Part shown: positions 1-42,734 of the stretch, in pieces | How positions within the stretch are numbered: the stretch's first letter is position 1 | Layout: each line of letters begins with the position of its first letter | Assembly (NCBI GenBank): GCA_040766505.1 | Contig: JAXGQJ010000004.1 | Location: forward strand, 17,549-81,548 | Direction of reading: 5' to 3' | From: Clostridiales bacterium | Lineage (GTDB): Bacteria > Bacillota > Dehalobacteriia > UBA7702 | DNA: 64,000 nt | Program-made: the position numbers and the translations under genes | The notes under the pieces: model-generated | What the model saw: the letters and a program-made list of their open reading frames with translations, nothing else | The model's database searches: none | What the model was told of the DNA's origin: nothing

Positions 1-954
1 GCATCTTCGCGAATACCGCCGGCAATTCCCCGTCCTTCCCGGCAGCGGCGGCCATTCTTCCCGCCGCCACGATCCAGGTTACCGCCTGGGAAAAGAGGAT
101 GGAGAGAAAAATCAAACCGAGGCCATAGACGATCCAGTCGCCGGCGAAGCCCAGTTCCCCCAAGAAGAAAAAGCAATCCATGATCGCCGTGACGATCGTT
201 GTATTTTCCGAGGGTACGATCACCAGAATCGCCAGCACCGCCACGATATAGAGGACGGAGATCAATACCGCGTTGCCGAGGGTGGCGACGGGCACGTCCC
301 GCACCGGGTTTTTCATTTTATTTCCCACCGTCGACATCACTTCAAAACCGAGATAATTGTAGATCAAGGCCGGGAAAAAGATAAACCCCTCATCGAGCCG
401 AGGAATAAAGCGGGCCAAGGAAAAATCATTGGCCGGCGCATTGCCCCGCAAAAGGAAGAAGGCGGCGGCCAGCGCCATGGAAAGAGCGATGGTAATTTTG
501 AAAACGGCGGCCATATTCGTTAAAAAGGTGGTGGCTTTCAGAGGACGCAGGCCGAACAGAATGATCAGCCAGATCATGGCGACGGCCATCGCGATCTGGG
601 CGGGAAAGGAAACCGCGCCCAAAAAGACCTGCCCAAGGATGCTGACCGTAAAAATGCTGGTCGAAGAAATCCAAATCGCATTGTTGACCCAATAATACCA
701 GGAAATTCTCGCGCCCCAGCGTTTGCCATAAGCCAGCTTGACCCAGCGATACATGCCCCCTTCGGCGGGAAAGCGGGAGCCCATTTCCGCCATAATCAGG
801 CCGGAAGGAAAGAAAAAGATGGCGGTGATGATCAGCGACCAACCGATGGAGGCAGGCCCCATGGAGGCCACTGGGCCCACCGTATCTAAAAAGAACATCA
901 CGCAGATCATGCCGAGAAAGATGTCCCGGCGTTTTAAGCCGTCTTCCCTTTGGT
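1..954 (-). CDS. APC-family amino acid permease, paralog 2 (C-terminal part lies beyond window start)
   Basis: minus-strand frame reads VENQREDGLKRRDIFLGMICVMFFLDTVGPVASMGPASIG..., colinear with N-terminus of permease 1028..2428; GTG start 952..954 preceded by GGAGGTG; plus-strand ORFs 429..695 and 738..986 are antisense shadows mirroring shadows 1851..2183 and 2226..2615 of the paralog. Confidence 0.7.
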
Positions 955-988
955 TTTCCACTACATTTTACACCTCCAGCGACTGAAT

Positions 989-1021
989 TTGCCGGCGCCG
1001 GGGCCAAACCGGCGTCGGCAA
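989..1021 (-). other. near-perfect 13-bp inverted repeat (TTGCCGaCGCCGG / CCGGCGcCGGCAA) between the two tandem permease genes; possible attenuator or processing hairpin, no U-tract
   Basis: read directly; 7 nt after stop of 1028..2428 and about 30 nt before start of next permease. Confidence 0.4.
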
Positions 1022-1027
1022 GGGCCA

Positions 1028-2428
1028 TTACTCCACCGCCTTTCCTTTCTTCACGCTGCGCCAGGTCAAATATTCACCGACGGCGAGGGCGATGAGAACG
1101 CCGGCGAGCAGGGGCAAGGCTTCCGCGGCATAAAAGGGCTGGCCAGGCACCCAGAAAAAGACAAAAATGGTAAAGAGCAAGATGATCTGGCTGATATGGG
1201 CAAAAACGGTTCCCACCATTGGCGGGCCGGGGAAGCGGTAAGGCCGGGGCGTCGACCGATCCGATTTCCGCATCTTGAGATAGCCCTGGTAATTGATAAG
1301 ATAGGGGATCAAAAAGATGATGCTGGTAAAAGCGAAAAGCGTCCAGAACAGGTCTTCGGCGGAACCGGCCATAAAGCCGTAAAGCAATGTGAGAACCGTA
1401 CCCACCGTACCGGTGATCAACAGCGTGCCGAGAGGCGTATCGTTTTTCTTATGAAATTTGGCGAAAACCTGCGGCAGTTCATGGTCGACGGCGGCTTCCG
1501 CGGCCATCCGGCTGGAAGCGACGATCCAAGTAACGGTTTGGGCAAAGAGGATCGACAGGAACATGCAGCCCACCAAAATGATAACCGCCGAGGTGATGGG
1601 CCCGGAGCCGAGGCTGATCATAAAGGTATCGAGAATGCCTTCCACGATATTGATTTCCTCCATCGGGATGATCACCAGGATCGCCAGGGTGGTCAAGATA
1701 TAAAGCAGCGAAATCAGCACCGCATTGCCGATGGTGGCCCTGGGTACGTCCCGGGCCGGGTTTTTCATCTGGCTCCCCATTGAGGACATCACTTCAAAAC
1801 CAAGGTAATTATAAATCAAAGCAGGGAAAAAAGCGAAGGATTGCCCCAAGGTGGGCCGAAAATTGGCGAGGGAAAGATCGCTGGCGGCGCTGCCGTTCCG
1901 GAAGAAAAAGAGGCAGGCGCAGCCAATGATACCACCGGCGATGATGAGCTTAAACAGGGCCGCCACATTGGTCACCCATTTCGATTCCTTGATGGGCCGC
2001 AAACAGACGAGGATCACCAGCCAGATCATGGCGATGGTGAGAACGATCTGCACCGGGAAAGAAATATGGGGCAAAAAAAGCTGGGAAAAAACACCGATGG
2101 TAAAGGTGCAAACGGAAGAAATCCAAACCGCATTGTTGACCCAATACATCCAGGAAACCCGGGCCCCCCAGCGTTTGCCATAGGCCCGCTTCACCCAGGC
2201 GTACATGCCGCCCTCTTCGGGATAGGTGGCGCCGAGTTCCGCAAAGATCAGGCCGGAGGGAAAGAAAAAGATGACGGTGATAATCAAAGACCAGGTAATG
2301 GCCGACGGGCCCATCGCCGCCACAGGGCCGATGGTATCGAGAAAGAACATCACGCAGATCATGCCCAAAAAGATGTCGAGGCCGGTTAAACTCTTTTTCC
2401 GTACCGGCGGGGGAGAAATTTCACTCAT
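1028..2428 (-). CDS. APC-family amino acid permease, paralog 1
   Basis: ORF 1028..2497; multi-TM with FAELGATYPEEGGMYAWVKRAYG; start moved to ATG 2426..2428 (MSEISPPP...) which has AGGAG 9 nt upstream. Confidence 0.8.
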   Translation of the reverse strand: MSEISPPPVRKKSLTGLDIFLGMICVMFFLDTIGPVAAMGPSAITWSLIITVIFFFPSGLIFAELGATYPEEGGMYAWVKRAYGKRWGARVSWMYWVNNAVWISSVCTFTIGVFSQLFLPHISFPVQIVLTIAMIWLVILVCLRPIKESKWVTNVAALFKLIIAGGIIGCACLFFFRNGSAASDLSLANFRPTLGQSFAFFPALIYNYLGFEVMSSMGSQMKNPARDVPRATIGNAVLISLLYILTTLAILVIIPMEEINIVEGILDTFMISLGSGPITSAVIILVGCMFLSILFAQTVTWIVASSRMAAEAAVDHELPQVFAKFHKKNDTPLGTLLITGTVGTVLTLLYGFMAGSAEDLFWTLFAFTSIIFLIPYLINYQGYLKMRKSDRSTPRPYRFPGPPMVGTVFAHISQIILLFTIFVFFWVPGQPFYAAEALPLLAGVLIALAVGEYLTWRSVKKGKAVE

Positions 2429-2611
2429 GCTTCTCACTCCTTGTATTAAATCATCGAAAGCGCGGTTAAAGACCCAAAGGCCTTTGTCAAAAACCAAAGC
2501 GTTTAATGAGGGAGGGATAGGGGGCTCTTGCCCCCTGCCTTTCCTGCTTTATCCCGCGGAGGGCCTTGAACCGCGCCGCCGAAACGCCGCCCGCAAAACG
2601 CGGGGCCAAAC

Positions 2612-4084
2612 TTAGGCAATCCCCAAATCCTTCTCTTCTTTAAGAATCATTTCCCGGATTTCCTTTTGCACATCTTCGGGCAAAGGCGTCGGCTTATGGG
2701 TTTTTAGGATGCGGATGGCCTCCCGGTCGCATTTTTCCACCAGGCTTTGGCTGCCCTCGGCCTGCCAGACATCGATCATATTGCGGTCGATCCATTTCGG
2801 CGTCGATTGGAAATTGCGCACCCGCTTCATCGTATGGGGTTCCGTCAGATAATTGCCGCCGGGGCCGATCTCCTTGATCAAGTCCACGGCCAGGCTTTCA
2901 TCGTCTCCGGGAATGCCCTGTAACACATGGCGCACCATCGCGGCAAATTCATTGTCCATGACCATCTGGCCATAACCCAAGGTAATGCCGAGTTCCAACA
3001 TGCCGAGACCGTAAATCAAATTGGCGCCGGCCAAAGCCGGCAGCAATGCCGTCAATGTCTTTTCATGGCCGGCCTGAATGTCGGCAAGTTTACTGTCCGC
3101 CTAGCCCCCCGCGACGAAACTGGGAATTTGGTAAAATTGGGCCATCCTCGCCACGGCGGCGCTGATCATACCCAGTTCGGGGCAGCCCACGGTGGCGCTG
3201 GCCCGGCGCAAATCGAGAATTGTGGTGGAGCTGCCATAGGTGACGGGATTGCCGGGGTTCACCATCTGGATCAGCACGATATTGGCGAGAATTTCGGCAT
3301 TGTGCACCACCAGTGTCCCCGCCAGGGTGATGGGGGAGGAGCCGCCGGCCATCGCCATCGACAGCGGATTACAGGGCAAACCGACCTTGGCATATTCCAT
3401 CAACATTTCCGTATTGCCCTTTGCCAAGGTCAATGGGCTGACGGGGCAGCCGCCCCCGGAGATGATCGGCCTTTCCTTCAATTTGTCCACACCGCCGACG
3501 ATCGCCGCCGCCATGGCGATGGCGATTTTCGCCTGGTGGGCGTCTTCCGCTCCCTGGCTTTGGTGCTTCGTTGTATTGCTGAGGGTCGCCTCGGCATTGT
3601 GCAGCATCGCCACCTTTTCATGTTTGTCCCGGGCCGTCAGGGTCTGCTCGATCACGTCGATTTGGTCTAAGGCGTCCACCAGCTTCGCCACATCGGCAAT
3701 GTCTTGCTTTGTTGAAGGGCGGCGCTCCTTCGTATCGGGATCCTCTACCATGATCCCTTCGCCAAAAGTAAGGAAGTTGACGCGCCTTCCCTCCAAAACC
3801 ACATCGTTCTTGGGATCCCTCCCGGCCAACAGCACTTTGGGCGGTGCTTTCCGAATCGCGTCTTCTACGACGGAACCGGGGATCCGCACAATTTTTTTGT
3901 CCCAGTCCACCCGGCAGCCGTGCTCTTCATAGACGGCCATCGCCGCTTCACTCTCTACAAAGATGCCGGTATATTCCAGCACGTCCAAGGTATCGAGGTG
4001 GATTTTATACAGCGTGTCTTCGCTCATCACCTGAAGGCTGAAACCCTCATAGGCGCCGCCGCCGGCGGCATAATTTCTCCTCAT
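2612..4084 (-). CDS. mttB: trimethylamine:corrinoid methyltransferase MttB, pyrrolysine-containing (in-frame UAG at 3101..3103)
   Basis: ORFs 3101..4084 (N-part ending ..[14 protein letters not shown]) and 2612..3055 (C-part) are in one frame separated only by TAG; read-through gives ..[39 protein letters not shown].., the MttB Pyl context; MttB-superfamily similarity over full length. Confidence 0.85.
3101..3103 (-). other. in-frame amber codon, predicted pyrrolysine codon of mttB copy 1
   Basis: cta on plus strand = UAG on minus strand at junction of ORFs 3101..4084 and 2612..3055. Confidence 0.8.
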
Positions 4085-4096
4085 CGTCTCTCCTCC

Positions 4097-5515
4097 TTAT
4101 CCTTCAAGGTCTATACGGGCCTTCGCGGCAATTTCGTCCATGGCGGCCACCACATCGGCGGAAAGCGGCTTTGCCTTATGGTTGGCCAAAATCTCGGCCA
4201 ATCTGTCCTGGGCCAAAGCGCGGTAATTCTGGCCGCCGGCAGCGAAAAGGAAGGAATTTTCCGCCTTTTCCATAAAGATTTCCCGGCGGAAATGGCGGAA
4301 GGTATGGTCGTGGCTGAGGAAATTGCCCCGGGGCCCCATTTCGGCGATCACGTCGAGGGCGGCGGTTTCCGCATCCAGGCTGAACTCCCGCAAATAGGCT
4401 TTGCTGTAACGGTAGACTTCGAGATCGAGAACAACGTCGACCAGCGAAGAGCTGAGACAGCTTTCCCGGGTGCCGAACCAACAGCAAACGTCGGGCCGGG
4501 TCATCAGCTTCATCGCCAGTTTATAGACATTGCGTTCGAACCCGGCGACGGTGGAGAAGTCTTTGAATTCCACGGTGCCGCCAACCTCGGAAGGCAGGCC
4601 GTAGAACCGGGCCATATCCACATCGGCGGCGCCCAAAAGCAAATATTCGCTGTTTTCATAGTCGATGCCACCGGTTCGCAAATCCGGCGCGCCGGCATCG
4701 GAAGAATAGAAGAAGCGGGCGTCTTCGGCGGCGCACTTCGCCACCATATAACAGGCCAGCACCTCGCTGTTGACCAATAGGGTGTCGGCGGCGACGGTCG
4801 CCGGGGAAGTGGTGGTCATCTGTGGCAGCGACATCGGGATGATCGGAATGCCGTGGCGGGCGGAAACGGCAATGGCGTCGGCAATGCCCCCTTCCAGCGC
4901 CAGCGGCGTTGTAGGCGCGGAAAGCAAAGACATGATCGGGTTTTTCCGCAGCCGGTCGGTACCGCCGGTGACGGCGGCAGCCAGCTCGATTTGCCATTGG
5001 GCCAGTTTGCCCGAGGCGGAAGAGCACTGTATATGTTTCGTTAAGTTACGAAACGAAATGTCCAGCGCTTTAAACTCCTGGTATTCCCCGTCAAATTCAT
5101 GGGGGAACATCAGCGGCCAAAAGCAGTCCATATCCGCGGAAGCGTCGGCTAAAATACAAAGCTGGGTCAAATCGTTCTCGGTCACATAACGTTTTTTGCC
5201 ACTGTCCTCGTCTTGAATATAGGGAACATAACCGGCTGGGGTTGTGAAGGGATGCCCGCCGGCGGGAAGGGACAGGGTGTGCTTTTCATCCCTCGCCCCC
5301 AACGGGAAAGAGGAAATGGCGAGGCCCAACATTTCCTTCACCATTTCTGCGGGGAACCGCACATTGTCGCCGATGACCTTGGCCCCCTTTTTCGCCAATA
5401 GGCCGCGAACCTCTTCGCTGCCGATATAAACACCGACGGTGGACAAGAGCTCCAATGTCTTTTCGTGGATATATTCCTGCTCTCCTCTACTTAATAATGA
5501 CAATTGTGTACGCAT
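4097..5515 (-). CDS. MttB-superfamily methyltransferase without pyrrolysine (MtgB/MtpB/MtcB-like quaternary-amine:corrinoid methyltransferase candidate)
   Basis: ORF 4097..5689; uninterrupted frame with sense codons at the Pyl column (..FYGLPSEVGGTVEFKDF..); start set to ATG 5513..5515 (MRTQLSLLSRGEQEY) with AAAGGAGA 7 nt upstream; 12-nt gap to mttB. Confidence 0.8.
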   Translation of the reverse strand: MRTQLSLLSRGEQEYIHEKTLELLSTVGVYIGSEEVRGLLAKKGAKVIGDNVRFPAEMVKEMLGLAISSFPLGARDEKHTLSLPAGGHPFTTPAGYVPYIQDEDSGKKRYVTENDLTQLCILADASADMDCFWPLMFPHEFDGEYQEFKALDISFRNLTKHIQCSSASGKLAQWQIELAAAVTGGTDRLRKNPIMSLLSAPTTPLALEGGIADAIAVSARHGIPIIPMSLPQMTTTSPATVAADTLLVNSEVLACYMVAKCAAEDARFFYSSDAGAPDLRTGGIDYENSEYLLLGAADVDMARFYGLPSEVGGTVEFKDFSTVAGFERNVYKLAMKLMTRPDVCCWFGTRESCLSSSLVDVVLDLEVYRYSKAYLREFSLDAETAALDVIAEMGPRGNFLSHDHTFRHFRREIFMEKAENSFLFAAGGQNYRALAQDRLAEILANHKAKPLSADVVAAMDEIAAKARIDLEG

Positions 5516-5560
5516 TTTTGGTCTCCTTTCCTGCGATGGCCACTCGCTTATCCATTCATA

Positions 5561-5577
5561 ATGCAAATCCGATGCCA
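5561..5577 (-). promoter_or_regulatory. sigma-54 (-24/-12) promoter candidate TGGCAT-N5-TTGCAT
   Basis: minus strand 5577->5561 reads TGGCATCGGATTTGCAT with correct GG-N10-GC spacing; about 46 nt upstream of the MttB-family start codon and directly downstream of a sigma-54 activator gene. Confidence 0.55.
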
Positions 5578-5591
5578 TCCCAAGAAAAACG

Positions 5592-5630
5592 ATAAAAAAA
5601 TCCCCTCTCGGATGTTTCAAAAGAGGGAGA
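5592..5630 (-). terminator. rho-independent terminator of the sigma-54 activator gene
   Basis: minus strand CTCCCTCTT-13 nt loop-GAGAGGGGA followed by TTTTTTTAT. Confidence 0.5.
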
Positions 5631-5787
5631 ACAAGCCGGTCTAGGAATTTGTCCTTTCGGACACAGTTTTCAATCGATGGCGGCATCAAAAATACGCCGT
5701 ATTTTTCGGACGGAAAGCAAAAACAGCGGCAAAAACGATACGGTTGCGCTACATATCGGAACAGCAGCGATACAGCAACGAGACACT

Positions 5788-7698
5788 TTATTCCGTTTTT
5801 TCCTCCAAACGCTTCAAACGCCGGTAAAGGGTCGAGCGGGCGACGCCCATATTTCGGGCGGCCAGGGAAATATTGCCATTGGCGGCCTTCAAGTGTTCCA
5901 ACAGCTCCTTTTCTTCCGATTCCTCCCGGCGGCGGGCTTCCTTGGCCAAAATGGCGGCAACGCTTTCCTTTATTGCGGGCTTTTCCGCTTCCCGCTTCGG
6001 CTTTTGCAGGGTGCCGGCAATATGCTGGGGCAAATCCTGCGGCGTGATCTTAGCGCCACCGGAAAGGTATAATACCCGCTCGGCCACATTCTGCAATTCC
6101 CGCACATTGCCGGGCCAATCATAGCGGCTTAAAGCCGCCAGCACCTTGGGATCAATGGCGGCCAGGGTTTCCTCCTTGCTGTAGCGCGCCAAAAAGTTGC
6201 TGAACAAAAGCAAAATGTCCTCTTTTCGTTCCCGCAAGGGCGGAATATGAAGGTTGATAACATTCAGGCGATAATAGAGATCCTGGCGGAAATTTTTCCG
6301 CATCACCTCTTCCAGCAAATCCTTATTGGTAGCGCAGATGATGCGCACATCCACCGGAATTTCCCGGCTGCCCCCCACCCGGGTGATGCGCCGCTCCTGG
6401 ATCACCCGCAATAGGGCGGCCTGCTGCTCCAAGGGCATATCACCGATTTCATCGAGGAAGATGGTGCCGCCCCGGGCCAGTTCGAATTTGCCCGGTTTGC
6501 CTCCTTTTTTTGCCCCGGTGAAGGCCCCCTCATCATAGCCCAACATCTCCGAGCCCACCAGTTCCCTGGGGATCGCGCCACAGTTGACGGCGACAAAAGG
6601 CCCCTTATAACGGGCGCTGCTGTTGTGGATCGATTGGGCGAACAGCTCCTTGCCGGTGCCGCTTTCCCCTTCGATCAAGACGCTGCAATCGCTGGCCGCC
6701 GCTTGCCGGGCGAGGAAGATCGTTTCCTGCAAATTGCCGCTATTGGTCACAATATCGGAAAATTGGAAACGGGACTGGGCGCCGCTGAAGATATTGACCA
6801 GCTTATGCACTTGGGCGATGGGCTTTAATACCAAAAGGCTGCGATGGGAATCCTCCCCCTTGGCCTGCAGCGGTACACCGGAAGCAACAAAGTGGCAATC
6901 CCCGCTCTTCAGCGGAAAATGCATTTCTACGTCGCCAAATTTCCTCCGTTGAAAGATCAGCCGGTGCAAATAAGAATTGGTATCTTGCAATATCTGCCGT
7001 TTAAAACAGGCCAGCAGCTCGTCTCCGGCGGACAACCACTGCTTGTCCGGCCCATAATTCCAAAAAGCGCCGTTGCCATCGGCTTCCAACACGACGATCC
7101 CTTCGGAAATGCTGGCGAGAACCGTCTTTAAATCCTGGTTGACGATGGCCAGTTCCCGGTTGGTCTTGGCCAATTCCTGGGTACGCTGGCGCACCTGGCG
7201 TTCCAATTCCCCCTGCAAATTTTTGAAATGGGTGATGTCCCGGCCTACGTCTTGGTATTCCAACACATTGCCGTATTCATCATAGAAGCAACGGCCGACG
7301 CTTTCCACCCAAACGATGCTGCCATCGGGTTGGCGCACACGGTATTCATATTTGTAATAGGGATTTTCCGGCGTCAGCGCCGCCACCGCCGCATCGATGG
7401 CGGGGCAATCCTCCTTAACGAGAAAATCCATTGTGTTCTGGCCCAAAAGCGCCTCGGGTTCCACATTGTAGAGCTGGCACAAGGCTTCGTTTACATAGAG
7501 AAGGCGATAGTCGGGGCCGGAGCGCTCCACGCATTCCGTCATATTCTCTAAAATGGAATCGTACTGGGCTTTTCGCAAGCGCAGCTCGGCGATTTCCCGG
7601 TTCTGTTCCTCTATCTTCGCCTCGGCATTTGCCAATGCTTCTTTAAGGCCCGCCGCCGAAGCCGCGGCCTTCGTTTCCGTCGGTTCCATCGCATCCAT
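5788..7698 (-). CDS. sigma-54-dependent transcriptional activator with N-terminal PAS sensor region, AAA+ domain and Fis-type HTH
   Basis: 636-aa ORF; GESGTGKE Walker A, GAFTGA sigma-54 contact motif, C-terminal ..LEHLKAANGNISLAARNMGVARSTLYRRLKRL. Confidence 0.85.
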   Translation of the reverse strand: MDAMEPTETKAAASAAGLKEALANAEAKIEEQNREIAELRLRKAQYDSILENMTECVERSGPDYRLLYVNEALCQLYNVEPEALLGQNTMDFLVKEDCPAIDAAVAALTPENPYYKYEYRVRQPDGSIVWVESVGRCFYDEYGNVLEYQDVGRDITHFKNLQGELERQVRQRTQELAKTNRELAIVNQDLKTVLASISEGIVVLEADGNGAFWNYGPDKQWLSAGDELLACFKRQILQDTNSYLHRLIFQRRKFGDVEMHFPLKSGDCHFVASGVPLQAKGEDSHRSLLVLKPIAQVHKLVNIFSGAQSRFQFSDIVTNSGNLQETIFLARQAAASDCSVLIEGESGTGKELFAQSIHNSSARYKGPFVAVNCGAIPRELVGSEMLGYDEGAFTGAKKGGKPGKFELARGGTIFLDEIGDMPLEQQAALLRVIQERRITRVGGSREIPVDVRIICATNKDLLEEVMRKNFRQDLYYRLNVINLHIPPLRERKEDILLLFSNFLARYSKEETLAAIDPKVLAALSRYDWPGNVRELQNVAERVLYLSGGAKITPQDLPQHIAGTLQKPKREAEKPAIKESVAAILAKEARRREESEEKELLEHLKAANGNISLAARNMGVARSTLYRRLKRLEEKTE

Positions 7699-7722
7699 CC
7701 TGGAGATCCTCCCTTCCGTTTC

Positions 7723-7752
7723 AAAAAAAGGGCGCCGCCAAATCGACGCCCC
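7723..7752 (-). terminator. rho-independent terminator after proS
   Basis: minus strand GGGGCGTCGATTTGGCGGCGCCC followed by TTTTTTT. Confidence 0.45.
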
Positions 7753-7781
7753 TTGCCTTATTATGGTTTTGCGCCGAAGCC

Positions 7782-10535
<2,754 letters not shown>

Positions 10536-10559
10536 CAAAGCCGAAAATCACCACCATCA

Positions 10560-11506
10560 CGACCAGAGGGGCAAGCCGACAAACGGTCGGTCCTTCCACC
10601 TTAGGGTTAACGTACGCCCGATGCCCTTCGATCCCCGGTGTTGACCGGCGCGGTCGAGGGCCGGCACCGGCAATAAGCGACGACGTTGAGATTGACGCTG
10701 ATGGCGCCGGCGGGTGATCGCGGTACCGATCGGTACAGAGATGTTTCACCTGCCCTGCCTCACATTTGCCCGACGGCCGACGTAATCGCCACTCCCAGTT
10801 TACCTTGCGCCGGTCACCATTTCAAACAGCGCACCGGATCAGCCTAACCACCCAGGTCGTTCAAACCCCTTTTCACTGCGCCGAAAATGGACATCATCTC
10901 CGTACCGCGGACGATGCCCAATTACGCCCGGCCTGATCGCGTCCACTTCCGGGGGTAACGGCGATGTCCAGGCGTTCACCGGCGTGCGGCCACCGCCCAC
11001 CCATTTCCATGCCCCGGTTGGCGCCGACCTGTTCCGCCCATTTCCCGCGGAAATCGGCGCCCCGCCGATGGCGACGACTTCATCCCCACCTCGATCCCGG
11101 CGGCGGCGGCGGGCTGCCCCGCCTGCACCTCACCGATGCGGGCCTCTTTTACCGGAGAACCCAACATCATGAAGGCGACGATGAAAAGCAGAATCGCCAG
11201 GATAAAGTTGAAGAGAGCGCCGCCAAAAACCACCAGCATCCGCTGGGGTACGGTTTTTTTATCAAAGCCGTTGGGATGCTCGCTCTCCCCGTCCTCCCCG
11301 GGCATTTTGCAATAGCCGCCAATGGGAAACAGCCGCAGCGAATAATAGGTTTCCCGGCCTTGAAAGCCGATCAATTTAGGCCCCATGCCGATGGCGAATT
11401 CCTCTACATAAATTCGGTTCAGCTTGGCAAAAAGCAGGTGCCCTCCCTCGTGAAACAGGATCACAAGGCCGAAGAGCAGCAAGGTCAAAGCGATGGTTAT
11501 GAGCAT
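10560..11506 (-). pseudogene. rseP: RIP zinc metalloprotease RseP (site-2 protease); frame broken
   Basis: N-terminal 176-aa ORF 10976..11506 with HEGGH motif and TM helices; C-terminal part in other frames. Confidence 0.6.
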
Positions 11507-12652
11507 AGCAATACCTCATTGAGATAGGCCCCGGCCCATTCCTGCGCCGCCAAAACCGCGCCAAGATCCGGGTGCGCCACGGGATCATGGGCAGACAGGG
11601 CCTTTTCTACATATTTGGAAATATCCGTATATTTTATTCGGTTTTCCAGGAACATATACACCAAAATTTCATTGGCGGCATTTAGAACCGCCGGCAGCGT
11701 TTGTCCGCTCCGCCCCGCCTCATAGGCCAGGCGCAAAAGCGGAAATTTTTCCTTGTCCGGAGCGAAAAATTCAATCTTGCCCACCGCCGCGAAATCCAGC
11801 GGCGGCAACGGATTGGGCCGCCGCTCCGGATAGGTTAAGGCGAATTGGATCGGAATCCGCATATCCGCCCGGCCCATATGGGCGAGAAAGGAACCGTCTC
11901 CATAGGCCACCAGCGAATGGATGAGGCTTTGGGGCTGGATCAGCACATCGATGCGGTCATAGTCGATGCCGAACAGCCAATGGGCTTCGATAACCTCGAG
12001 GCCCTTGTTCATCATCGTTGAAGAATCCACCGTAACCTTCGCCCCCATCGACCAGGTGGGGTGTTGTAGGGCCATGGCGGGGGTAACCGCCGCCAATGCC
12101 TCCCGGCTAAAAGTGCGGAAGGGGCCGCCGGAGGCGAGAGTATGATCTTTTTCAAACCGCTTTTCCCCGCCAGCAGGCATTGGAAAATCGCGGAATGCTC
12201 GCTGTTCATCGGAACCAGCACGCCGCCCTTCCGCCGCAGCAGCAGCGCATCGACGTAGGTGTCCCGCCGTTACCAGGCTTTCTTTATTGATCGCCACGGT
12301 GCGCCCTCTTCCTCTAAAGCCCAAAGCAGCGGTTTTAACCCCGCCATGCCGGAAATGCCGTGAACGACGATGTCCACAGGGTGTTTCCCGCCGCGGCCAT
12401 TAAGCCCTTCTTCGCCGCAGAGAATTTCGCCGGAAAAGCCCCGCAATGTCCGTTTCAAAAGCGGATAGATGCGGGGTTTCCGGTGACTACAAGGCGGGGC
12501 CGGTATTTTTTTACCTGCCGGGCCAAATCTTCCACCCCGGGCGGCGGCCACCAAAACATCGACCCGGTACGCACCGGGAAACCAATCGACAACCGACAAG
12601 GTTTGGCCGCCGATGGAGCCGGTGGAACCTAAAAAAGCGCAATGGTTTTCAA
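11497..12652 (-). CDS. dxr: 1-deoxy-D-xylulose 5-phosphate reductoisomerase; one frameshift near N-terminus in a T6 run (12631..12636 region)
   Basis: ORF 11497..12324 (C-terminal 275 aa) plus fragment in 12270..12737 containing LGSTGSIGGQTL; adding one T to the T6 run restores MKTIALFLGSTGSIGG; TTG start 12650..12652. Confidence 0.7.
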
Positions 12653-30669: not shown

Positions 30670-30705
30670 GAAACCAGAAAACCGATGTTGATGTTTGGAG
30701 TGGGA

Positions 30706-32197
30706 TCAAATGTGGTATTCGGAAAGGGGAAGGCGGCATGCGCTTTCCATTTCATTTACGATATCCCGCACCGTTTTGCCAATATGGGGCAAAAGGGGCG
30801 GAACCTGATAATTCCGGTACAAATCCAAGGCCCGTTCATTGGCATTTTGGAGAATGTCCCGTCTGCCCGCCGCCTCCCACTCTTCCGGCATGGTGCGGTC
30901 AATCAAATTTGACTGCGACTGGCTTTCCTTAAAATATTGAAAGGTATGGCTGTGCGGATACGAATTCTCCGCCGGGGCCCACCTCGCGGATGGCGGCCAA
31001 TGCCAAAGATTCCTCATCCACCTCGATGCCTTTCAAAGCGTGAAGAATCATACCGGCGAATTCATTGTCCATAACCAGCTTGGAATAATCGAAGGTAATG
31101 CCCAATCCCAGCATACCCAGGCCATAAATCACATTGGCGCCTGCCAATGCCGCCAACAGCGCCGAGAGGGTGGTCTCATGGCCCGCTTGGGCGTCGGGAA
31201 CTTTGGCATCGGCCTAGCCGCCCGCAACCCAACTGGGCAAATGATAAAATTGGGCAATTTGCGCCACCGAGGCGGAGATCATGCCCAATTCCGGCGCTCC
31301 CACCCCGGCGGTGGTGGTGCGCAGATCCATCATCGTCGTGGAGCTGCCATAAATAAAGGGATTCCCCGGCCGGATGCCCTGGCACAAAACGAGGCCCGCC
31401 AACACCTCGGCATTGTGAACCACCAAGGTGCCGGCGAGGGTCACGGGGCCGGTTCCGCCCGACAGGGCCATGGAAAGCACATTGACGGGGATGCCTGCCA
31501 TCGCGGCTTCCATAATCACTTCCGTCGTATCCGGATTCAAGGAAAGGGGGCTGTTCGGGCAACAGAGAGGGGAATAGATCGGCCGCTTTCTCAGATTCTC
31601 CATCCCTCCTTGGATCGCCGCGGCCATGCGAATGATGGCTTTGGCGTTCTGCCCATTGCCCGCGCCAATAAAGGCATGTTTCGTTGTGTGATGGAAAATG
31701 GCCTCCGCATTGTGAATGCTTTGCACTTCCGGCGGAACTTCATCGGCGCCCAGCGCCCTTTCATAGACGGCGATGTTTTCCATCGCGTCACAGAGGCGCG
31801 TGGCGTCGCCAACGTCTTTTTTTGTAGAATTTTTCGCGGAGCGGCTTACCGGATCCACCACCTTGATTCCTTCGCCAAAATTGGTAAATGTCACCTTTTT
31901 CCCGTAGAGATAGACGTCGTTCTTGGGATTGCGCCCGCAGAGAAGAACAGAGCTCGGCGCCGCCCTGAGGGCGTCCTCCACCATGCTGGGCGTTACATAA
32001 ACGATTTGCCGGGCGGCGTCAAATTCCGCGCCCAGGCCTAAAAAAATGTCTTGCGCCTCCGGAGAAATCACCTTGACGCCGGTGTTCTGCAATATATCCA
32101 GGGTAGCGCCATGCAAGAGATACAGGTCATCTTCGGAGAACAGGTTCAACCCTATGCCGAGTATTTTCTCCTGCCCCGCCAATAAAGCGCGATTCAT
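30706..32197 (-). CDS. mttB: second, divergent pyrrolysine-type MttB-family methyltransferase (in-frame UAG 31214..31216; additional frameshift ca. 30965)
   Basis: ORF 31214..32197 ends ..[11 protein letters not shown], then TAG, then in-frame ..[17 protein letters not shown] (30929..31156); last ~100 codons continue in another frame (30706..31017); about 50% identical to copy 1. Confidence 0.75.
31214..31216 (-). other. in-frame amber codon, predicted pyrrolysine codon of mttB copy 2
   Basis: cta on plus strand; same alignment column (VAGG-O-A) as in copy 1 although flanking nucleotides differ. Confidence 0.75.
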
Positions 32198-32463
32198 TTT
32201 ATCTCCCCCTTCTTTTGGTCATCGTCGCCCTTTTTGCCTTTTGTGTTGTTCTTATTATAGCAGAAATTGAAATCCGTTCCCGCCTACAAAAAGTAAAATG
32301 ATGACTTTACACTTCGTAAGATTCCCCGGCGGGGCAAAAAAACTTAATTTTGGTAAAACGGAAACTAGACAATGTGTAAAATGACATTTTATCAATTCAA
32401 TGCTACGCTTAGGGCAATTGCCATAAAAAACCGTATATAGAGATTTTGGAAGGAGAGAGAAAA

Positions 32464-33954
32464 ATGGGTGAAATCAAAAGGCTTCAATATTTCGCCGGCG
32501 GCCAATGGCACACCTCAAAAAGTGAAACGTATATGACCGTATACAATCCCAGCACCGGCCAGCCGATCGCCGAAACGCCCTGCTGTACCGAGGAGGAGTC
32601 AACCATGCCGTCGCCTGCGCGAAAGAAGCGTTTCCGGGCTGGAGGGACACCCCGGCCATCAAAAGGGCCCAAATCCTCTAAACTACGGGATCTGTTGATG
32701 GAACATTTGGATGAACTCACCTATCTGGTGGCCTGGGAAAATGGCAAAGCCTGGGGCGACGCAAAAGGCGATGTATTGAAGGCGAAGAAGCCGACGGAGG
32801 TCGCCTGCGGCATTCCCAGCCTGATGATGGGCGAATCCAGCATGGACACATCAAAAGGCGTGGATACCGTACTATACCGCGAACCGTTGGGGGTTTTCGC
32901 GGGGATCGTTCCCCTTTAATTTTCCCGCGATGATTCCGATGGGCTGGATGACGCCGTTTGTATCGCCGCCGGCAATACCATCGTTTTAAAAGCCGCCAGC
33001 ATGACGCCGCAAACCGCGATGCGCATCGCCGATTTATACCGCGAAGCCGGCCTGCCCGACGGCGTGCTGAATCTCGTCACCTGCTCCAGGAATGAAGCGA
33101 ATCTGCTGCTTTCCCATCCGGATATCAAGAGCATCAGCTTTGTCGGTTCCACCGCCATCGGCCTTTCCGTCTATTCCCAGGCCGCCGCCGCCGGTAAGCG
33201 GGTGCAGTGCCTCTGTGAGGCGAAGAACCATGCCCTCGTCCTAGACGACGCGCCGATAGAACGAACCGCGGCGGGCATCATCAATTCCTGCTTCGGCTGT
33301 GCCGGAGAACGGTGCATGGCTTTGCCGGTTGTCGTCGCCCAGGAAAGCATTGCCGATCAACTGGTGGCGGCGATCGTTCGCAAGGCGAAAGAGCTAAAGG
33401 TGGGGCCGGCCTATGAAAAAGATACGGAGATGGGCCCCTTGGTCTCCGGCGGCCATAAGGATTTTGTCCTCAAATGGATCGACAAAGGGGAGGCGGAGGG
33501 CGCCGAAATGGTTCTGGACGGTAGGAATTTTAAGGTTCCCGGTTATGAGAACGGTTTTTTCGTCGGCCCCACCGTCGTGGACAAGGTACGGCCCGGCATG
33601 ACCATTGGCGATGAAGAGATCTTTGGGCCGGTGGTCTGCATCAAAAGGGTGAAGGATTTTGAGAGGGGCCTGGCCCTGATGAATGAAAACCAATTCGCCA
33701 ATGGCTCCGTTATTTTCACCCAGAACGGCTATTATGCCAGGGAATTTGCAGGGCGAACCGACGGCGGCATGGTCGGCGTTAATGTCGGCATCCCGGTTCC
33801 CATCGGCATTTTCCCCTTCTCCGGCCACAAACGCTCCTTCTTTGGCGATCTGCATTGTCTCGGAAAGGATGGCATCCGCTTCTATACCGAATCAAAATGC
33901 GTAACCACCCGCTGGTTCGACGAAGAAGAGCTGAAAAAGAAGGTCGATACTTGA
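32464..33954 (+). CDS. mmsA: CoA-acylating malonate/methylmalonate-semialdehyde dehydrogenase (MmsA/IolA type); frameshifted between ca. 32600 and 33000
   Basis: N-terminus MGEIKRLQYFAGGQWHTSKSETYMTVYNPSTGQPIAE after GGAAGGAGAG; ORF 33001..33954 (GERCMA, FPFSGHKRSFFGDLHCLGKDGIRFYT) matches MmsA closely. Confidence 0.75.
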
Positions 33955-34033
33955 GACAGCACCATCTGAGCCGGCCAAAACCTTGGTCGATTCCTCTATG
34001 AAGAGACATCCGAGCAAGCGAAGGAGGATGGTA

Positions 34034-35356
<1,323 letters not shown>

Positions 35357-35593
35357 AAAGAACGCGGAGGATAAATTCCCCGGCCCACAATGGAAAAGCA
35401 TCCTCCATATCAAGTCTTAAAAGCCCCAGAACCGCCAAATTCAGGGGCTATCCTTTCAAAAAAGGCAACCAATGCATAGAACCCCGGCGCTTTTAGCGAA
35501 AATCCAGATTATAGCCCAAAGCCGCCTTGCAGCGGCTTTAGGCTCAATCTGGCGGGCTTCGAGAAACGGCCTAGAGCTAGGTGCGGACAAAGG

Positions 35594-35631
35594 CCAGGCC
35601 CCAACGTATACGCACATACGTTGGGGCCTGG
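35594..35631. terminator. perfect 16-bp stem-loop between convergent gdhA and BCCT genes (bidirectional terminator candidate)
   Basis: CCAGGCCCCAACGTAT-acgcac-ATACGTTGGGGCCTGG followed by CTTTGGG. Confidence 0.5.
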
Positions 35632-35731
35632 CTTTGGGAGGGATGATGCCATTGGCGGTTTGTCGGCGGCCCGGAACCCGGCGGCGCTTTGCGCCGGGTT
35701 TCAGGCATTACAATGCCGGTTTTTCCAACAT

Positions 35732-37415
35732 TTAACGGCAAAGCGGCGGCTCCAGCCCGCTCACTTCTTGCACATCCTCATACTTATGGGTCACTTTGAT
35801 CTCCTTTTCTTTGTCTTGGCCAAAGTCCTCTTTCAGCATTCGATTCCCTGAAAGCACAAGGATCACAAAAATCGGAATCAGGAAAATCGCCGCGGCGATG
35901 GAAAGGGTTTGAATTTGCCCCGCCACGCCAAGATAGGTCAGGATCACCGCCAGCACCGCCATGGCGATGGCCCAGGAGAACCGATGCCAACGGGCCGGCT
36001 GCTCTTCCGCCTTTAAATCGCCGGAACAGATGGAAGCGATGGTATAAGCGGAAGAGTCGATGGTGGTGGCCGCGAAGATAAACGCCAGGACGATGTATAG
36101 AATAAGAAAGAAGATAGGAATCGGCAATGTTTGCAAAACCGCGATGATGGTGCCCACATTGCCCAGCTCCGCCATGGCTTCCGTCATCGCCATGGTTCCG
36201 GTCCATTCCAGATACATGCTGTATCCGCCCATGACCGCAAACATGCCACAGGTTCCAAACGTTCCAAACACCAATTCGGCGACGACCAATTGGCGAATGG
36301 TGCGGCCTTTCGATATACGCGCAACAAAAAGGCCCATCATCGGCGCATACGCCAGCCACCAGGCCCAATAAAAGACCGTCCACCATTGCGGGAAACTGGC
36401 GCCATTGTCCAAGACGGAGAATGGATCTGTCCAAAGGCTGATGCGGAAAAAATCCGCCAGCATGAGGCCGATGCTGTTCGTGGTCAGATTAAAAATAAAG
36501 GAAGTATAACCCCTAAACAGGCCGATGACCAAAATCCCGATGGCAAATAGGATCGCCAGATACAGGTTAATATCGCTCAACCGCGATATGCCCTTGTCGA
36601 GGCCGAGGAAAATCGAAGTGCCGAAGATCAGGAACCAGATGCCGATGACCACAAAAACAATCCAGGTCGAATTGCTGAGATCCAGGCCGAAAACACTGCC
36701 GGCCAGGCCGGTAATGGTCGGCACCGCAATGGACAATGTGGTGCCGACGGCGCCGACGATGCCGAAAATAGAAAAGATGTCGATCAGCACGCCGAGCCAA
36801 TTGTCGGCCCATTTCCCCAGCAGCGGTTTGCATGCGGCGCTCAGGCGCAGGATGTTCTTTTTACGCACAAAGATCATATAGGCGATCGGCACCGTTGGAA
36901 TGCAATAGATCGCCCAGGCGCTAAAGCCCCAGTGAAACATCGGATACATATGGGCATATTCAAAAATCAGCGCCTTGGCGGAACCGGTAAGGTTGACGCC
37001 AATCCCGGCGGCGGAATCCACATTATAAAGGGCCGCCAAACCGAGGGCGCGCCATCCAAATAGCTGACGCTTTCATAAAATCCCCAGCTCATAATCCCGC
37101 CGCCGATGCCGGCACAAAACAGCATTGCAACCCAGTTAAACCAGGAATAATCGGGTTTGTCCTCCGGCCCCCCAACTTGACCGTACCGTAGCGCCCCACA
37201 GCCCAATACAGCAACACAAAAAAGCAAAACAGACAGAACAATAAATAGGCCCAGCCCCAAGGAATCGTCGTCCAATTAAACGCCGAGGTGATCATCTTGG
37301 AAGCAATGTCCCGCGACAGAGAAATCGGCAGAAAAATCGCGAGCAGAACGATCACGGCGGGCAGGGTTACCCTTTTATCCACCTTTACATACCGAAACGG
37401 ATCTTCCAATTTCAT
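35732..37415 (-). CDS. BCCT-family (betaine/carnitine/choline) transporter; two frameshifts in N-terminal third
   Basis: ORF 35732..37039 (435 aa, many TM helices) plus 36967..37275 and 37089..37415 (N-terminus MKLEDPFRYVKVDKRVTLPAVIV.., AGIGGGIMSWGFYES). Confidence 0.75.
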
Positions 37416-37585
37416 GTTTCATCCTCCTTTACCCTATTTTAAATTATCCAAAAATTATGCAACCAAAGGCCCCACCTCCCTCATTTTGGCAATAAAAAAG
37501 CACCGGAACATGCATTCTGCATTTTTATAAGAAATGCATCTCCGTCATACGCCAATCGCCGATTGGCAAAAAACAGTGATCTTGG

Positions 37586-37632
37586 CCGAAAACCGGGAAA
37601 GGAAACGGCATTTTCGCCCGTTTCCTTTCCCT
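37586..37632 (-). terminator. rho-independent terminator after MttB-family gene 37640..39060
   Basis: minus strand GGGAAAGGAAACGG-10 nt-CGTTTCCTTTCCC then GGTTTTC. Confidence 0.55.
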
Positions 37633-37639
37633 TCCCCTA

Positions 37640-39060
37640 TTATTCTTTTACAACCGAACGGATATAATCCTGCAAAAGGCGGTCGAGTTCGGAATCGAGC
37701 ATGGTTTCCGGCGCCGCCGCCAAGCGCTCTTTATAGAGACGGTGGGCCCGCTCCAACATGTCCCGGCCTTCCATTTTCGCATAGCTGTCATAGGAGGACC
37801 AATCGGAAACCGTCGGCTGCCAATATTCCTTATAGTGTTCAAATGTGCTGGCATGGGCCAAATAACTGCCCTGCCCCACCTCGTCAATCAGATCCAGAGA
37901 CATGGCTTCGTCTCCGATGTCCATACCGGCGGCGATGCGGAAAACGCGTTCCACACATTCCTCGTCGATGATAAACTTTTCAAAAGACATGGTCATAATC
38001 GAATCGAGCACCCCCAAGCATTCATGGATGATATGGGCACCGCCCAGAATGCCCATCATCAAGTTTTGCATCGTTTCCAAAGCGGATTGGGGGTCAACGG
38101 TTTTCGCTTCCGACATTCCCGTCATCATACGGGTCGGCAGATGGTAAAAATGGTGGAAGATATCGAGGGAGGCCAGGTCGATCAGGAACATCTCCGGCGC
38201 CGCCGAGAGGTAGGAAGCGCGCTTCATATAGGTAATAGAGGAACAGGGAGCCGCCACAACCGGGCAGCCGGGCTTTACCAGCTGTACCAAAACCAGACCG
38301 GCGATGATTTCCGCCACCTGGGTCATCACGGTTCCGAACAGGTGCACCGGTGCGGTGGCGCCGCTCATGGCGCAGGGCAACACCATCACCACTTGACCGG
38401 CTTTCGCATAGGTCAGGATCGCTTCGGTGGTATCGGTGCCGAAAGCCAATGGGCTTAACGGATTGGCGGAAACGGCGGTTACGATCCGGTCATCGGAAAT
38501 CTCGTCCAGGCCAAAGGCCAGCGCCGTCATTTTCAACAACTGGCTGCTGTTTGCGCCATTGCTGTTGATGCTGATGATGGCTTTGTCCGTATGCCGCAAT
38601 ACCGCATAGAGCATATGGAGGTGCTTGGTGCTTTGGTCGATGTCATTGGGATTGATGGGATTCGCGCCGACAAGGCCGGTAACGGAACTGCTTTGGTGCA
38701 ATTTCTGCACAGCGGCATAATCCGCCAAAGTGCCGAAACGGCGGGGCCCTTGCCAGTCTTGCATATAAACACAACCGACATTGGGCTCACAAACCTGGTC
38801 CCGGCCCATCAAGATGGTATGGTTCGGATTCCGGGCCTCCCAATAGAATTGGGAGGGCGCCGTCTGCAAGGCACGTTCCGTCATCTCTTTTGGAATATGC
38901 ACCACATTTCCTCAACGCGGGCGCCGTGGGAGCGAAACACCTCCACAGCCTCGGGGCAGTCAAACCGTATACCGGTACGATCCAAAATGGTGAGCACCCC
39001 GCCGTGCACGCGTTCCATATCGTCGCGGTTCAACATCGACAGTCTGGGTTTCCTGATCAT
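37640..39060 (-). CDS. MttB-superfamily methyltransferase without pyrrolysine, copy 2 (one frameshift ca. 38890)
   Basis: ORF 37640..38905 (421 aa) plus N-terminal fragment in 38881..39177 (MIRKPRLSMLNRDDMERVHGGVLTILDRTGIRFD); no stop at the Pyl column. Confidence 0.75.
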
Positions 39061-39082
39061 GATTTTGTCTCCCTTCCATCCT

Positions 39083-40387
39083 TTAATTGCACGCGCCGTC
39101 CAAGATGGCCAGGTTCTTATCGAGGACGGCCAGCACATCATCGAGTTGATCCTTGGTGATGACCAAAGGAGGGCCAAAATTCATCAGATTGCTATAGGTC
39201 ATGTGATAGACGCCGTCCTTCAGATTGGCGCTTTTGAACGCCGACATAGAGGCATCGTCCATCTTTTCCTTCGTTTCGCGGTTTTTAACAAATTCCAAGC
39301 CGATAAATAGGCCGATCCCTCGCACATCGCCGATGGCGGGATGATGCTCCTGCAGTGCCTGGAGCTTCTCTTTCGCATAGGCGCCAAGGATCACTGAATT
39401 CCTCAATAAACCTTCTTCGCCATAAATCTCCATCACCCTGCAAGCGGTGGCGACACTTAATGTATGTCCGCTATAGGTCAAGCCCGCCGACAGCTTGCGG
39501 TCTTCAAAATAATCGGCGATTTCATCTTTAACCGCCACCGCCCCCAAAGGAGCGTAGCCGCTGGTCATCCCTTTGGCCATTGTCACCATGTCGGGGACGA
39601 TGCCAAAATGTTCAAAGGCGAACATTTTGCCGGTGCGGCCGAAACCCGCCATGACTTCATCGCAAACCAGCAAAATCCCGTACCGGTCGCAAATGGAACG
39701 GATCTTAGGCAGATAGCCTTTCGGCGGCACAATGATGCCGTTGGTTCCGGTGACCGTTTCTAAAAAGACGGCGGCGATGGTGGCGGGGCCTTCATATTGC
39801 ACCACCTCTTCAAAATGCTTGGCGCATTCCAAATGGCAATTTTCCTCCTTTTGGCCGAAAGGGCAACGGTAGCAATAGGGATCGAGAAATTTCACGACGC
39901 CGGGAATCAGAGGCTCCGCGTCAACGCGCCTGGGATCGCCGGTTAAGGCGAGGGCGCCGGCGGTGGCGCCATGGTATGAACGGTAGCGGGACAACAGTTT
40001 GGAGCGGCCCGTATAATAGTGGGCGATCTTGATGGCGTTTTCATTGGCGTCGGCACCGGCATTGGTGAAAAAAACCTTGCCAAACCCTTTCGGTAGAAAA
40101 TCGACGATTTTTTTCGCACATTCCCCTTTTTTGCTATTGCTGAAGCAGGGCGCCGCAAAGGTCAATACATCCGCCTGCTCTTTCAGAGCGGCGATTGCTT
40201 TAGGATGCTGGTGCCCGATATTACAGTTGACCAACTGCGCCGACAGATCGACAAAACGGTTTCCTTCCGCGTCGAAAAAATAGATGCCCTCTCCCCGCTC
40301 CATCGGTATCGGGTAAATCGCGCCCTGCACAGACCAGGAAAACAGATTGTATTTTCTGTTCAGCTTGATGATTTCCTTATTGTCCAT
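39083..40387 (-). CDS. class-III PLP-dependent aminotransferase (omega-amino acid / beta-alanine--pyruvate transaminase type)
   Basis: ORF 39083..40552; start MDNKEIIKLNRKYNLFSW at 40387 after AAAGGAGAGAG; ..VTMAKGMTSGYAPLGAV.. PLP-lysine region. Confidence 0.8.
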   Translation of the reverse strand: MDNKEIIKLNRKYNLFSWSVQGAIYPIPMERGEGIYFFDAEGNRFVDLSAQLVNCNIGHQHPKAIAALKEQADVLTFAAPCFSNSKKGECAKKIVDFLPKGFGKVFFTNAGADANENAIKIAHYYTGRSKLLSRYRSYHGATAGALALTGDPRRVDAEPLIPGVVKFLDPYCYRCPFGQKEENCHLECAKHFEEVVQYEGPATIAAVFLETVTGTNGIIVPPKGYLPKIRSICDRYGILLVCDEVMAGFGRTGKMFAFEHFGIVPDMVTMAKGMTSGYAPLGAVAVKDEIADYFEDRKLSAGLTYSGHTLSVATACRVMEIYGEEGLLRNSVILGAYAKEKLQALQEHHPAIGDVRGIGLFIGLEFVKNRETKEKMDDASMSAFKSANLKDGVYHMTYSNLMNFGPPLVITKDQLDDVLAVLDKNLAILDGACN

Positions 40388-40620
40388 TCTTCTCTCTCCT
40401 TTTGCTCGTTTTTCGATGCCATCGCCGCTGCGGAAAGGGGGGATCAGCCCATGAAGAAACGCCCCTTTTTCGCCTCTTCCGATGAAGAGAATGCGCCGGA
40501 AACGGCGGCGTTCGCCCAACGGCCCCGCGCAGCCGTTTTCCGGCCAAACCAAAGCATCACACCCTGCTTCACTGATTGCAACAAATGGTCTTTCCCCACA
40601 CTGTACCCGTTCCTAGCAGA

Positions 40621-41271: not shown

Positions 41272-41301
41272 TTCTCCGCCCTCCAAATATTGTGTTTCCG
41301 G

Positions 41302-42690: not shown

Positions 42691-42734
42691 AATATACCCC
42701 CCTATCTTTTTTTAAGTCGGTTTTATTGCTTTCA

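Follow-up and report, generated by a model that had tools for sequence, protein, structure and literature searches.

Sigma-54 control of mttB genes is already known, and here we compare the described systems with a locus on a 64,000-nucleotide stretch of DNA from Clostridiales bacterium (GenBank assembly GCA_040766505.1, contig JAXGQJ010000004.1, positions 17,549 to 81,548). This whole stretch is referred to as the window, and all coordinates are positions in it. On its minus strand a gene for an enhancer-binding protein with PAS domains (hereafter the activator) precedes an operon of methyltransferase and permease genes, among them a pyrrolysine (Pyl) type mttB for a trimethylamine (TMA) methyltransferase, and a putative -24/-12 promoter lies between the two. 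A preliminary description of the window had called sigma-54 control unusual for Pyl methyltransferase operons. That assessment is weakened by two papers from 2025, one on SigL promoters of Sporomusa sphaeroides and one listing MttB of Clostridia, and the regulatory mode as such is not new. Beyond these two papers, our search for literature linking sigma-54 with MttB, MtgB or pyrrolysine returned nothing else of relevance.

In S. sphaeroides KIAC, differential RNA sequencing (dRNA-seq) identified SigL promoters, together with sigma-54 regulators, in a betaine/mttBC gene cluster that is induced on its substrate (mSystems 2025, PMC12456013). The two systems have in common a Firmicute host, promoters of this class (TGGCA-N6-TTGC in Sporomusa), and sigma-54-interacting regulators in the cluster, which in Sporomusa holds mtgABC as well as mttBC. 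The Sporomusa cluster, known from a cultured Negativicute and backed by dRNA-seq, spans 58 kb, is centred on betaine and includes grd genes, whereas the window carries a compact four-gene cassette without a corrinoid-protein gene, from uncultured gut and digester Firmicutes. Enhancer repeats and a terminator acting as insulator, both proposed below, are not described in the accessible part of the Sporomusa paper (PMC12456013). No Sporomusa protein was found among the 120 closest homologues of the activator, so the regulators of the two systems may not be orthologous.

The second paper, a survey with position-specific scoring matrices, places MttB (COG5598) of the class Clostridia among predicted sigma-54 targets (PLoS One 2025, PMC12316311), and thus shares with our analysis a computational link between -24/-12 elements and MttB-family genes. 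Unlike our analysis it works at the level of COGs and, in its one passage on MttB, gives the role of the target as cobalamin biosynthesis and names no activator, no binding site and no division into Pyl and non-Pyl members (PMC12316311). Targets related to methyltransferases, trimethylamine or betaine are absent from a survey of Clostridiales sigma-54 regulons from 2019 (PMC6615313). In Clostridiales it is the norm for a PAS-type one-component sigma-54 activator to stand beside a catabolic operon.

PrdR, the best NCBIfam match of the activator, resembles it in its PAS, AAA+ (with GAFTGA) and HTH_8 domains and in the position of its gene next to a catabolic target operon. It does not share the first PAS domain of the activator (PAS1), and its target is proline reductase, whereas the putative targets here are methylamine methyltransferases. 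An identification of the activator as PrdR itself (NF041552) was rejected, since it scores 406 bits against a cut-off of 795 and the alignment is limited to residues 181-630. With NtrC, ZraR, FleQ and NifA the activator has the AAA+ core in common, and we assume the same ATP-driven opening of the closed complex from an upstream enhancer; it has no receiver domain and carries a tandem PAS sensor instead. Sites of the NtrC type mostly consist of inverted repeats in pairs, whereas the candidate enhancers in the present family consist of three to seven hexamers on the same strand, phased at about 11 bp. The methylamine operons of archaea (mttB-mttC-mttP; Methanosarcina, Methanomassiliicoccus) likewise combine a Pyl mttB and a PYLIS-type element with a linked permease gene (PMC5688252). 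They differ from the operon in the window in that archaeal transcription operates without sigma-54, the corrinoid protein gene mttC is included, and the non-Pyl MttB paralogue is lacking.

Results

The sequence evidence supports a real and conserved regulatory module, and the core of the preliminary description is upheld with the corrections given below. The sigma-54 promoter, read directly as TGGCATCGGATTTGCAT, is located on the minus strand at 5561..5577. Read in the direction of transcription (5577..5561) it has the form TGGCAT-N5-TTGCA, its GG (5576/5575) and GC (5564/5563) doublets stand at exactly the canonical GG-N10-GC spacing, and the site TGGCATCGGATTTGCA matches 15 of the 16 positions of the consensus TGGCAC-N5-TTGCW. 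The near-consensus promoter reported earlier at these positions is thereby confirmed on direct reading. It is correctly oriented towards the downstream ATG (5515..5513), from which 45 nt separate it, equivalent to the 46 positions counted in the preliminary description. Placed from the C of the -12 element at 5563, the transcription start is predicted at about 5551. The pattern TGGCAY-N5-TTGCW has a single match on both strands of the window, which is the promoter site. The expectation is 0.17 matches per 128 kb, at least one match anywhere was obtained in 15 of 100 window shuffles, and by our own arithmetic the chance of a correctly oriented match within the 270-nt spacer between activator and operon is about 4e-4. 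A promoter scan found no sigma-70-like promoter on the minus strand of this spacer. An Rfam scan of 2400..8000 gave no riboswitch or leader RNA, PYLIS_3 being its sole match.

Related loci (labelled L001-L039) were collected from the contexts of activator homologues and from one scan of a genome collection with the sensor alignment, and were annotated by BLASTP against the window proteins. One NCBI entry is 100% identical to the activator, which also has many homologues of 45-78% identity in metagenome-assembled genomes (MAGs) labelled Clostridiales, Bacillota or Peptococcaceae; relatives recovered by the genome-collection scan with the sensor-region alignment were at most 53% identical. Homologues with at least 46% identity are nearly always encoded beside methylamine methyltransferase genes. 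From these we defined 22 non-redundant places, namely the window and 21 related MAG or metagenome loci in which an activator 46-78% identical to that of the window adjoins a methylamine methyltransferase operon. A correctly placed and oriented -24/-12 element is present in all of them (22/22), where about 0.25 would be expected by chance, and on this ground a chance origin of the promoter is excluded. The background rate of the relaxed -24/-12 pattern was approximately 0.04-0.06 per kb (1.33 Mb, both strands). The distance from the element to the start codon is 37-107 nt in the measured spacers, and the flanking sequence is unconserved.

The gene order seen in the window (activator, non-Pyl MttB, Pyl MttB, and one or two APC permeases) is shared by L001, L002, L004/L010, L005, L006, L009, L011, L012, L013, L015 and L017, the contig of L013 stopping inside the first methyltransferase gene. 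Most of these related cassettes have two permeases, and the MAGs that carry them come from human gut (HRGM, Hadza), rumen and anaerobic digesters. The genes flanking the cassette differ among L001, L002, L004, L005 and L006, which indicates that it is kept as a unit. Other layouts were also found: activator, Pyl MttB and permease in L016; activator, corrinoid protein and Pyl MtbB (mtbC-mtbB) in L008, L025, L039 and at the second activator of L010; and an activator divergent from Pyl mttB or mtbB in L018, L019, L021 and L038. In L014 Pyl MtbB alone was detected downstream of the activator. Three activator paralogues occur on one 2.65 Mb contig (ERZ21831019 ctg34037l), at an mttB cassette (L005), a divergent mttB (L038) and an mtbC-mtbB operon (L039), and each of the three has a -24/-12 element. 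No methyltransferase gene adjoins the homologues of L007, L020, L022 and L024 or those of Syntrophomonas, which are more distant.

The activator gene (5788..7698, minus strand) encodes 636 aa. Pfam assigns PAS_3/PAS to residues 45-159, Sigma54_activat (PF00158) to residues 316-483 (E = 2.4e-68) followed by AAA_lid_14, and HTH_8 (PF02954) to residues 591-631, the C-terminal DNA-binding helix-turn-helix (HTH). The order of parts is an N-terminal helix, PAS1, a coiled-coil helix, a second PAS domain (PAS2), AAA+ with GAFTGA, AAA lid and Fis-type HTH. The motifs GESGTGKE, GAFTGA (residues 391-396) and DEIGDM are intact, and in a simple pattern search GAFTGA was present in 59 of the 60 closest homologues. 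Against the PDB the AAA+ core matched ZraR, NtrC and FleQ, down to E = 1e-70. The protein thus has the features of an enhancer-binding protein, an AAA+ domain with Walker A and B motifs and GAFTGA, an HTH and an N-terminal sensor, and the intact PAS/AAA+/Fis-HTH protein first noted directly upstream of the operon was recovered by both Pfam and motif searches.

An AlphaFold model of residues 1-318, built on an alignment of 20 sequences, reached a mean predicted local distance difference test (pLDDT) score of 83.8. In the model a helix (residues 9-51) is followed by PAS1 (56-154), a 40-residue helix (156-195), PAS2 (200-293) and a linker helix. Foldseek searches with the sensor model gave the tandem-PAS sensors NifL, LOV-PAS, DosP and FixL as best matches, and also MmoS, all at 13-17% identity. 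The model and these matches confirm the second PAS fold, and with it a tandem PAS sensor; at such low identity they speak for the fold and do not indicate a ligand. Four aromatic residues of PAS1 (Y115, Y117, W130 and Y148) are invariant in the sensor alignment.

Upstream of the activator, the stop codon of proS is followed by a GC-rich hairpin with a T7 run (approximately 7752..7722; region 7699..7781), which nearly abuts the ribosome-binding site (RBS) of the activator gene. Between this terminator-like hairpin and the RBS there is neither room for a promoter of the activator nor a match to one. For this reason the activator may rely on low-level read-through of the proS terminator, a suggestion that we make with reserve.

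On the minus strand at 5737..5785 an array of five phased direct repeats, identified by tandem-repeat detection and by enrichment in orthologous spacers, forms a candidate enhancer or upstream activating sequence. The hexamers are TGTCTC (5785-5780), TGTATC (5774-5769), TGTTCC (5763-5758), TGTAGC (5753-5748) and CGTATC (5742-5737), spaced by 11, 11, 10 and 11 bp, and an 11-nt tandem unit was detected at 5761-5782. The first repeat lies 5 nt past the first base of the activator stop codon, and the array is approximately 160-210 bp upstream of the promoter. In the first 100 nt after the activator stop codon of 13 orthologous spacers, TGT[AC]TC occurs 33 times in forward and once in reverse orientation against an expectation of 0.47, an enrichment of about 70-fold. 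TGTATC is the most enriched hexamer (80-fold) and is present in 12 of the 13. The spacings between hexamers in these spacers cluster at multiples of a helical turn (11 bp in 14 cases, otherwise 10, 21-22 and 32-33), which puts the hexamers on one face of the helix. The preliminary description had proposed a search for inverted repeats between 5600 and 5790; the candidate sites proved to be same-strand direct repeats.

The hexamer differs among activator subgroups: TGTATC/TGTCTC is one type, and the variants are TGTWAC at the divergent loci, TGTTCTC at L008 and TGTGCC/TGTGTC at L010b and L014. In this small sample the HTH recognition region of the activator varies along with the hexamer, which is the pattern that cognate sites would give. 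We consider it likely that the phased repeats are an enhancer bound by the adjacent activator. A perfect palindrome, AAAAATACG-C-CGTATTTTT, was also observed at 5688..5706, between the repeats and the terminator described next; it was dropped as an activator site, since the closest orthologous spacer, that of L001, lacks it.

Between the repeats and the promoter a terminator scan detected a hairpin resembling an intrinsic terminator, with a T7 run (5592..5630, minus strand). Its 9-pair stem (5626..5602) is followed by ATTTTTTT, and it ends 16 nt before the -24 element. The terminator previously ascribed to the activator gene is therefore present as hairpin and T-run, its folding energy being modest. 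A hairpin with a T-run, 0-17 nt upstream of the -24 element, was found in 15 of the 18 co-directional spacers (window included), and 12 of these 15 hairpins have folding energies of -15 to -30 kcal/mol; the sequences of their stems bear no relation to one another. This recurrence defines the order activator gene, enhancer, terminator and sigma-54 promoter. With such an order the candidate enhancer would belong to the 3' untranslated region of the activator mRNA, and the operon would be shielded from read-through.

The first gene of the operon (4097..5515, minus strand; RBS AAGGAG at 5528-5523) encodes a 472-aa protein with the Pfam domain MTTB (PF06253). It scores 258.5 bits against the TMA-methyltransferase equivalog TIGR02369, under the cut-off of 525, has no in-frame stop codon, and shares 27% identity with the Pyl MttB next to it, whose Pyl residue aligns with a Thr. 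It is about equidistant from MtgB (156 bits; PDB 2qne, 9yce) and MttB (148 bits; 7xcl). On these comparisons we assign it to the MttB superfamily only; it is not a Pyl trimethylamine methyltransferase. The second gene (2612..4084, minus strand) has one in-frame TAG at 3101..3103 (codon 328, context GG-O-ADSK), and against TIGR02369, with its cut-off of 525, the two halves of its product reach 455.5 and 193.7 bits. PYLIS_3, the mttB type of this element in Rfam, was found on the minus strand at 3004..3103 with 75.8 bits (gathering score 38) and begins exactly at the TAG. By profile, TAG and PYLIS this gene is identified as the genuine Pyl mttB of the operon. The view that the promoter drives Pyl methyltransferase genes would therefore apply to the second gene of the operon, and not to the first, which has no Pyl codon. 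In the related cassettes, too, a non-Pyl MttB paralogue with Thr or Ser at the Pyl position always stands just before the Pyl mttB.

The third gene (1028..2497, minus strand; Pfam AA_permease_2) encodes an APC-family permease, a putative methylamine transporter. Its start is probably at about 2440, given that tblastn with orthologous permeases aligns 2440..1040, and this permease gene follows the Pyl mttB in every cassette locus with a sufficiently long contig. The fourth gene (1..985, minus strand), found by tblastn, encodes a second APC-family permease and exits the window at its start; with the second permease of L002 it shares 65% identity across 967..5 in frame -1. An open reading frame (ORF) of 200 aa at 426..1028 was discarded as spurious, as it has no Pfam match and the actual permease is encoded in another frame. 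No corrinoid-protein gene was found in the operon of the window or in any related cassette. A sequence TGGTAC-N5-CTTGCT was seen inside the second APC permease gene, approximately 370 nt before its end, in L004 (15869), L010 (9250) and L006 (14095, plus strand), and is probably conserved coding sequence and not a promoter.

A second methylamine cluster of the window (31214..44457) contains a broken Pyl mttB, an aldehyde dehydrogenase fragment, a BCCT transporter, another MttB-family gene, a class-III aminotransferase, a corrinoid protein and a Pyl mtbB. The PucR-type regulator that had been attributed to this cluster was found beside it at 42817..44457, and no -24/-12 element was found in the cluster. 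ARAGORN detected no tRNA genes, tRNA-Pyl included, in the whole window.

Two further arrangements were observed among the related loci. A shorter sigma-54 activator type, of 481 aa in L005 and similar in L009 and L012, adjoins non-Pyl MttB-family genes (L005 343..3604, L012 108..3387, L009 3581..9685); the L005 copy has no PAS match. The transporter is of the MFS type in L005 and of the BCCT type in L009, and -24/-12 elements lie at 2060 in L005, 1857 in L012 and 9685 (minus strand) in L009. At the mtbC-mtbB type loci L008 (9990..10027) and L025 (approximately 1455..1484) the -24 element lies inside an inverted repeat, TTGTGCC-N8-GGCACAA, 54-73 nt past the activator stop codon and without a terminator hairpin, a layout unlike that of the mttB cassette.

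Discussion

We conclude with good confidence that the locus is a self-contained sigma-54 cassette whose promoter is fired by the adjacent cognate activator. We infer that the host possesses sigma-54. The following sequence of events is proposed. The activator would be made at a low level, possibly through read-through of the proS terminator, and its Fis-type HTH would bind the phased TGT(A/C)TC repeats just past its own stop codon (5737..5785). A signal, for which trimethylamine or a similar methylated amine is the most plausible candidate, would act via the tandem PAS domains, upon which the AAA+ domain with its GAFTGA loop would assemble. By DNA looping it would then open the closed complex of the sigma-54 holoenzyme at 5577..5561, about 185 bp downstream, at the expense of ATP. 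Transcription would proceed from about 5551 through the non-Pyl MttB gene, the Pyl mttB and the two APC permeases. Read-through from the activator gene would be blocked by the hairpin and T-run, leaving the operon silent unless the activator fires.

Several observations weigh against this reading. The lineage is known from MAGs alone. Six-frame translations of the window and of L001-L037 (approximately 660 kb of related loci) contained no match to the RpoN box RRT[VIL][ATS]KYR, in a search that covered about 20 kb per genome and is hence uninformative on rpoN in the whole genomes. Only two of the five repeats in the window are perfect consensus hexamers, and the hairpin of the window folds at -11 kcal/mol (z = -0.3), no better than shuffled sequences. 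In a neighbour-joining tree of the sensor regions, activators of the mttB and mtbB types are unseparated. Lastly, many housekeeping genes of the window are frameshifted; in 7788..12377 proS falls into frames -1, -2 and -3, and ispG and dxr are each split between two frames. This casts doubt on the quality of the sequence, and decay of the locus is conceivable.

The last point raises the question of whether the locus functions in this genome at all or is a decaying or mis-assembled region whose signals are relics. Besides the split proS, ispG and dxr, the second Pyl mttB (approximately 30700..32197) breaks about 100 aa beyond its Pyl codon, and unrelated domains are fused in single ORFs, as for RNase HII and NuoA at 58316..59281. 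Together the frameshifts and fused domains point to an error-prone, perhaps long-read, assembly or to pseudogenes. The genes of the module that lie wholly inside the window are intact if the Pyl TAG is set aside; identity to intact orthologues is 43-86% for the activator, both methyltransferase genes and the first permease, the promoter keeps its GG-N10-GC spacing exactly, and frameshifts in scattered genes resemble long-read indel errors more than decay. We therefore regard a non-functional locus as improbable. We give even less weight to the explanation that the promoter is in place but fired in trans by a different enhancer-binding protein, the adjacent activator having another target. These genomes do contain several sigma-54 activators, among them the shorter one (about 481 aa) that adjoins other MttB-family genes, and homologue L007 has no methyltransferase alongside. 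Against this stand the adjacency of activator family and -24/-12 promoter in 22 of 22 places, co-directional as well as divergent and in varied genomic contexts, and a repeat motif that adjoins the activator gene and shifts with the activator subgroup. That the sigma-54 match arose by chance, and that read-through or an overlooked sigma-70 promoter accounts for transcription of the operon, is extremely improbable: shuffled windows do produce matches and the terminator hairpin of the window is weak, but the element keeps its relative position in all 22 places despite unconserved flanks, the scan of the spacer gave no sigma-70-like site, and the neighbouring gene encodes a dedicated sigma-54 activator.

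What the activator senses is a separate matter. We tentatively suggest that it senses a methylamine substrate directly, which is possible rather than probable. In its fuller form the suggestion is speculative and on balance doubtful: the activator with its tandem PAS would detect TMA or dimethylamine (DMA) directly in the cytoplasm, and its active oligomer would be nucleated on an unusual enhancer made of helically phased hexamers of the same strand. The invariant PAS1 aromatics Y115, Y117, W130 and Y148 might form a cation-pi cage for methylammonium. A rival explanation keeps promoter and activator as proposed and has the PAS domains report a redox, energy, cofactor (haem or flavin) or partner-protein signal in place of a methylamine. 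The nearest structural matches of the sensor are cofactor-type PAS sensors (NifL, LOV, DosP, FixL and MmoS), and PAS activators of Clostridiales have been proposed to sense redox or energy status (PMC6615313). The mixing of mttB-adjacent and mtbB-adjacent activators in the sensor tree also counts in its favour, and argues against sensing of one substrate by one paralogue; a simple division into one clade for TMA and another for DMA is unsupported, the mtbB-type activators of L010b and L014 nesting within the mttB-type clade. Yet the Foldseek matches are too distant to inform on the ligand, the almost exclusive location of the activator family at methylamine methyltransferase operons suggests a pathway-specific signal, and three paralogues in one genome, each at a different methyltransferase operon, are hard to fit with one global signal. 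We consider a signal of this other kind rather unlikely, though to be taken seriously.

With respect to known systems, the general picture is unchanged, PAS-activator control of catabolic operons through sigma-54 being common in Clostridia. New here are the tandem-PAS activator family, the candidate enhancer of phased direct repeats, the terminator insulator and the cassette of non-Pyl and Pyl mttB with permease genes. The combination of activator, TGTATC repeats, terminator and -24/-12 element offers a genomic signature for the annotation of methylamine regulons. The cassette also supplies a testable sensor protein with its DNA site, and flags a conserved non-Pyl MttB paralogue before the Pyl mttB.

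Trimethylamine formed by gut microbes is the precursor of trimethylamine N-oxide (TMAO), and bacteria that demethylate TMA via Pyl MttB are of interest as TMA sinks. If TMA or DMA is indeed sensed directly, the activator would be, to our knowledge, the first methylamine-sensing transcription activator described in bacteria, and it would provide a ready-made part for a TMA biosensor from TMA-removing gut anaerobes. The uncultured organisms that carry the cassette probably switch on their use of TMA and DMA through a tightly off, activator-dependent sigma-54 promoter.

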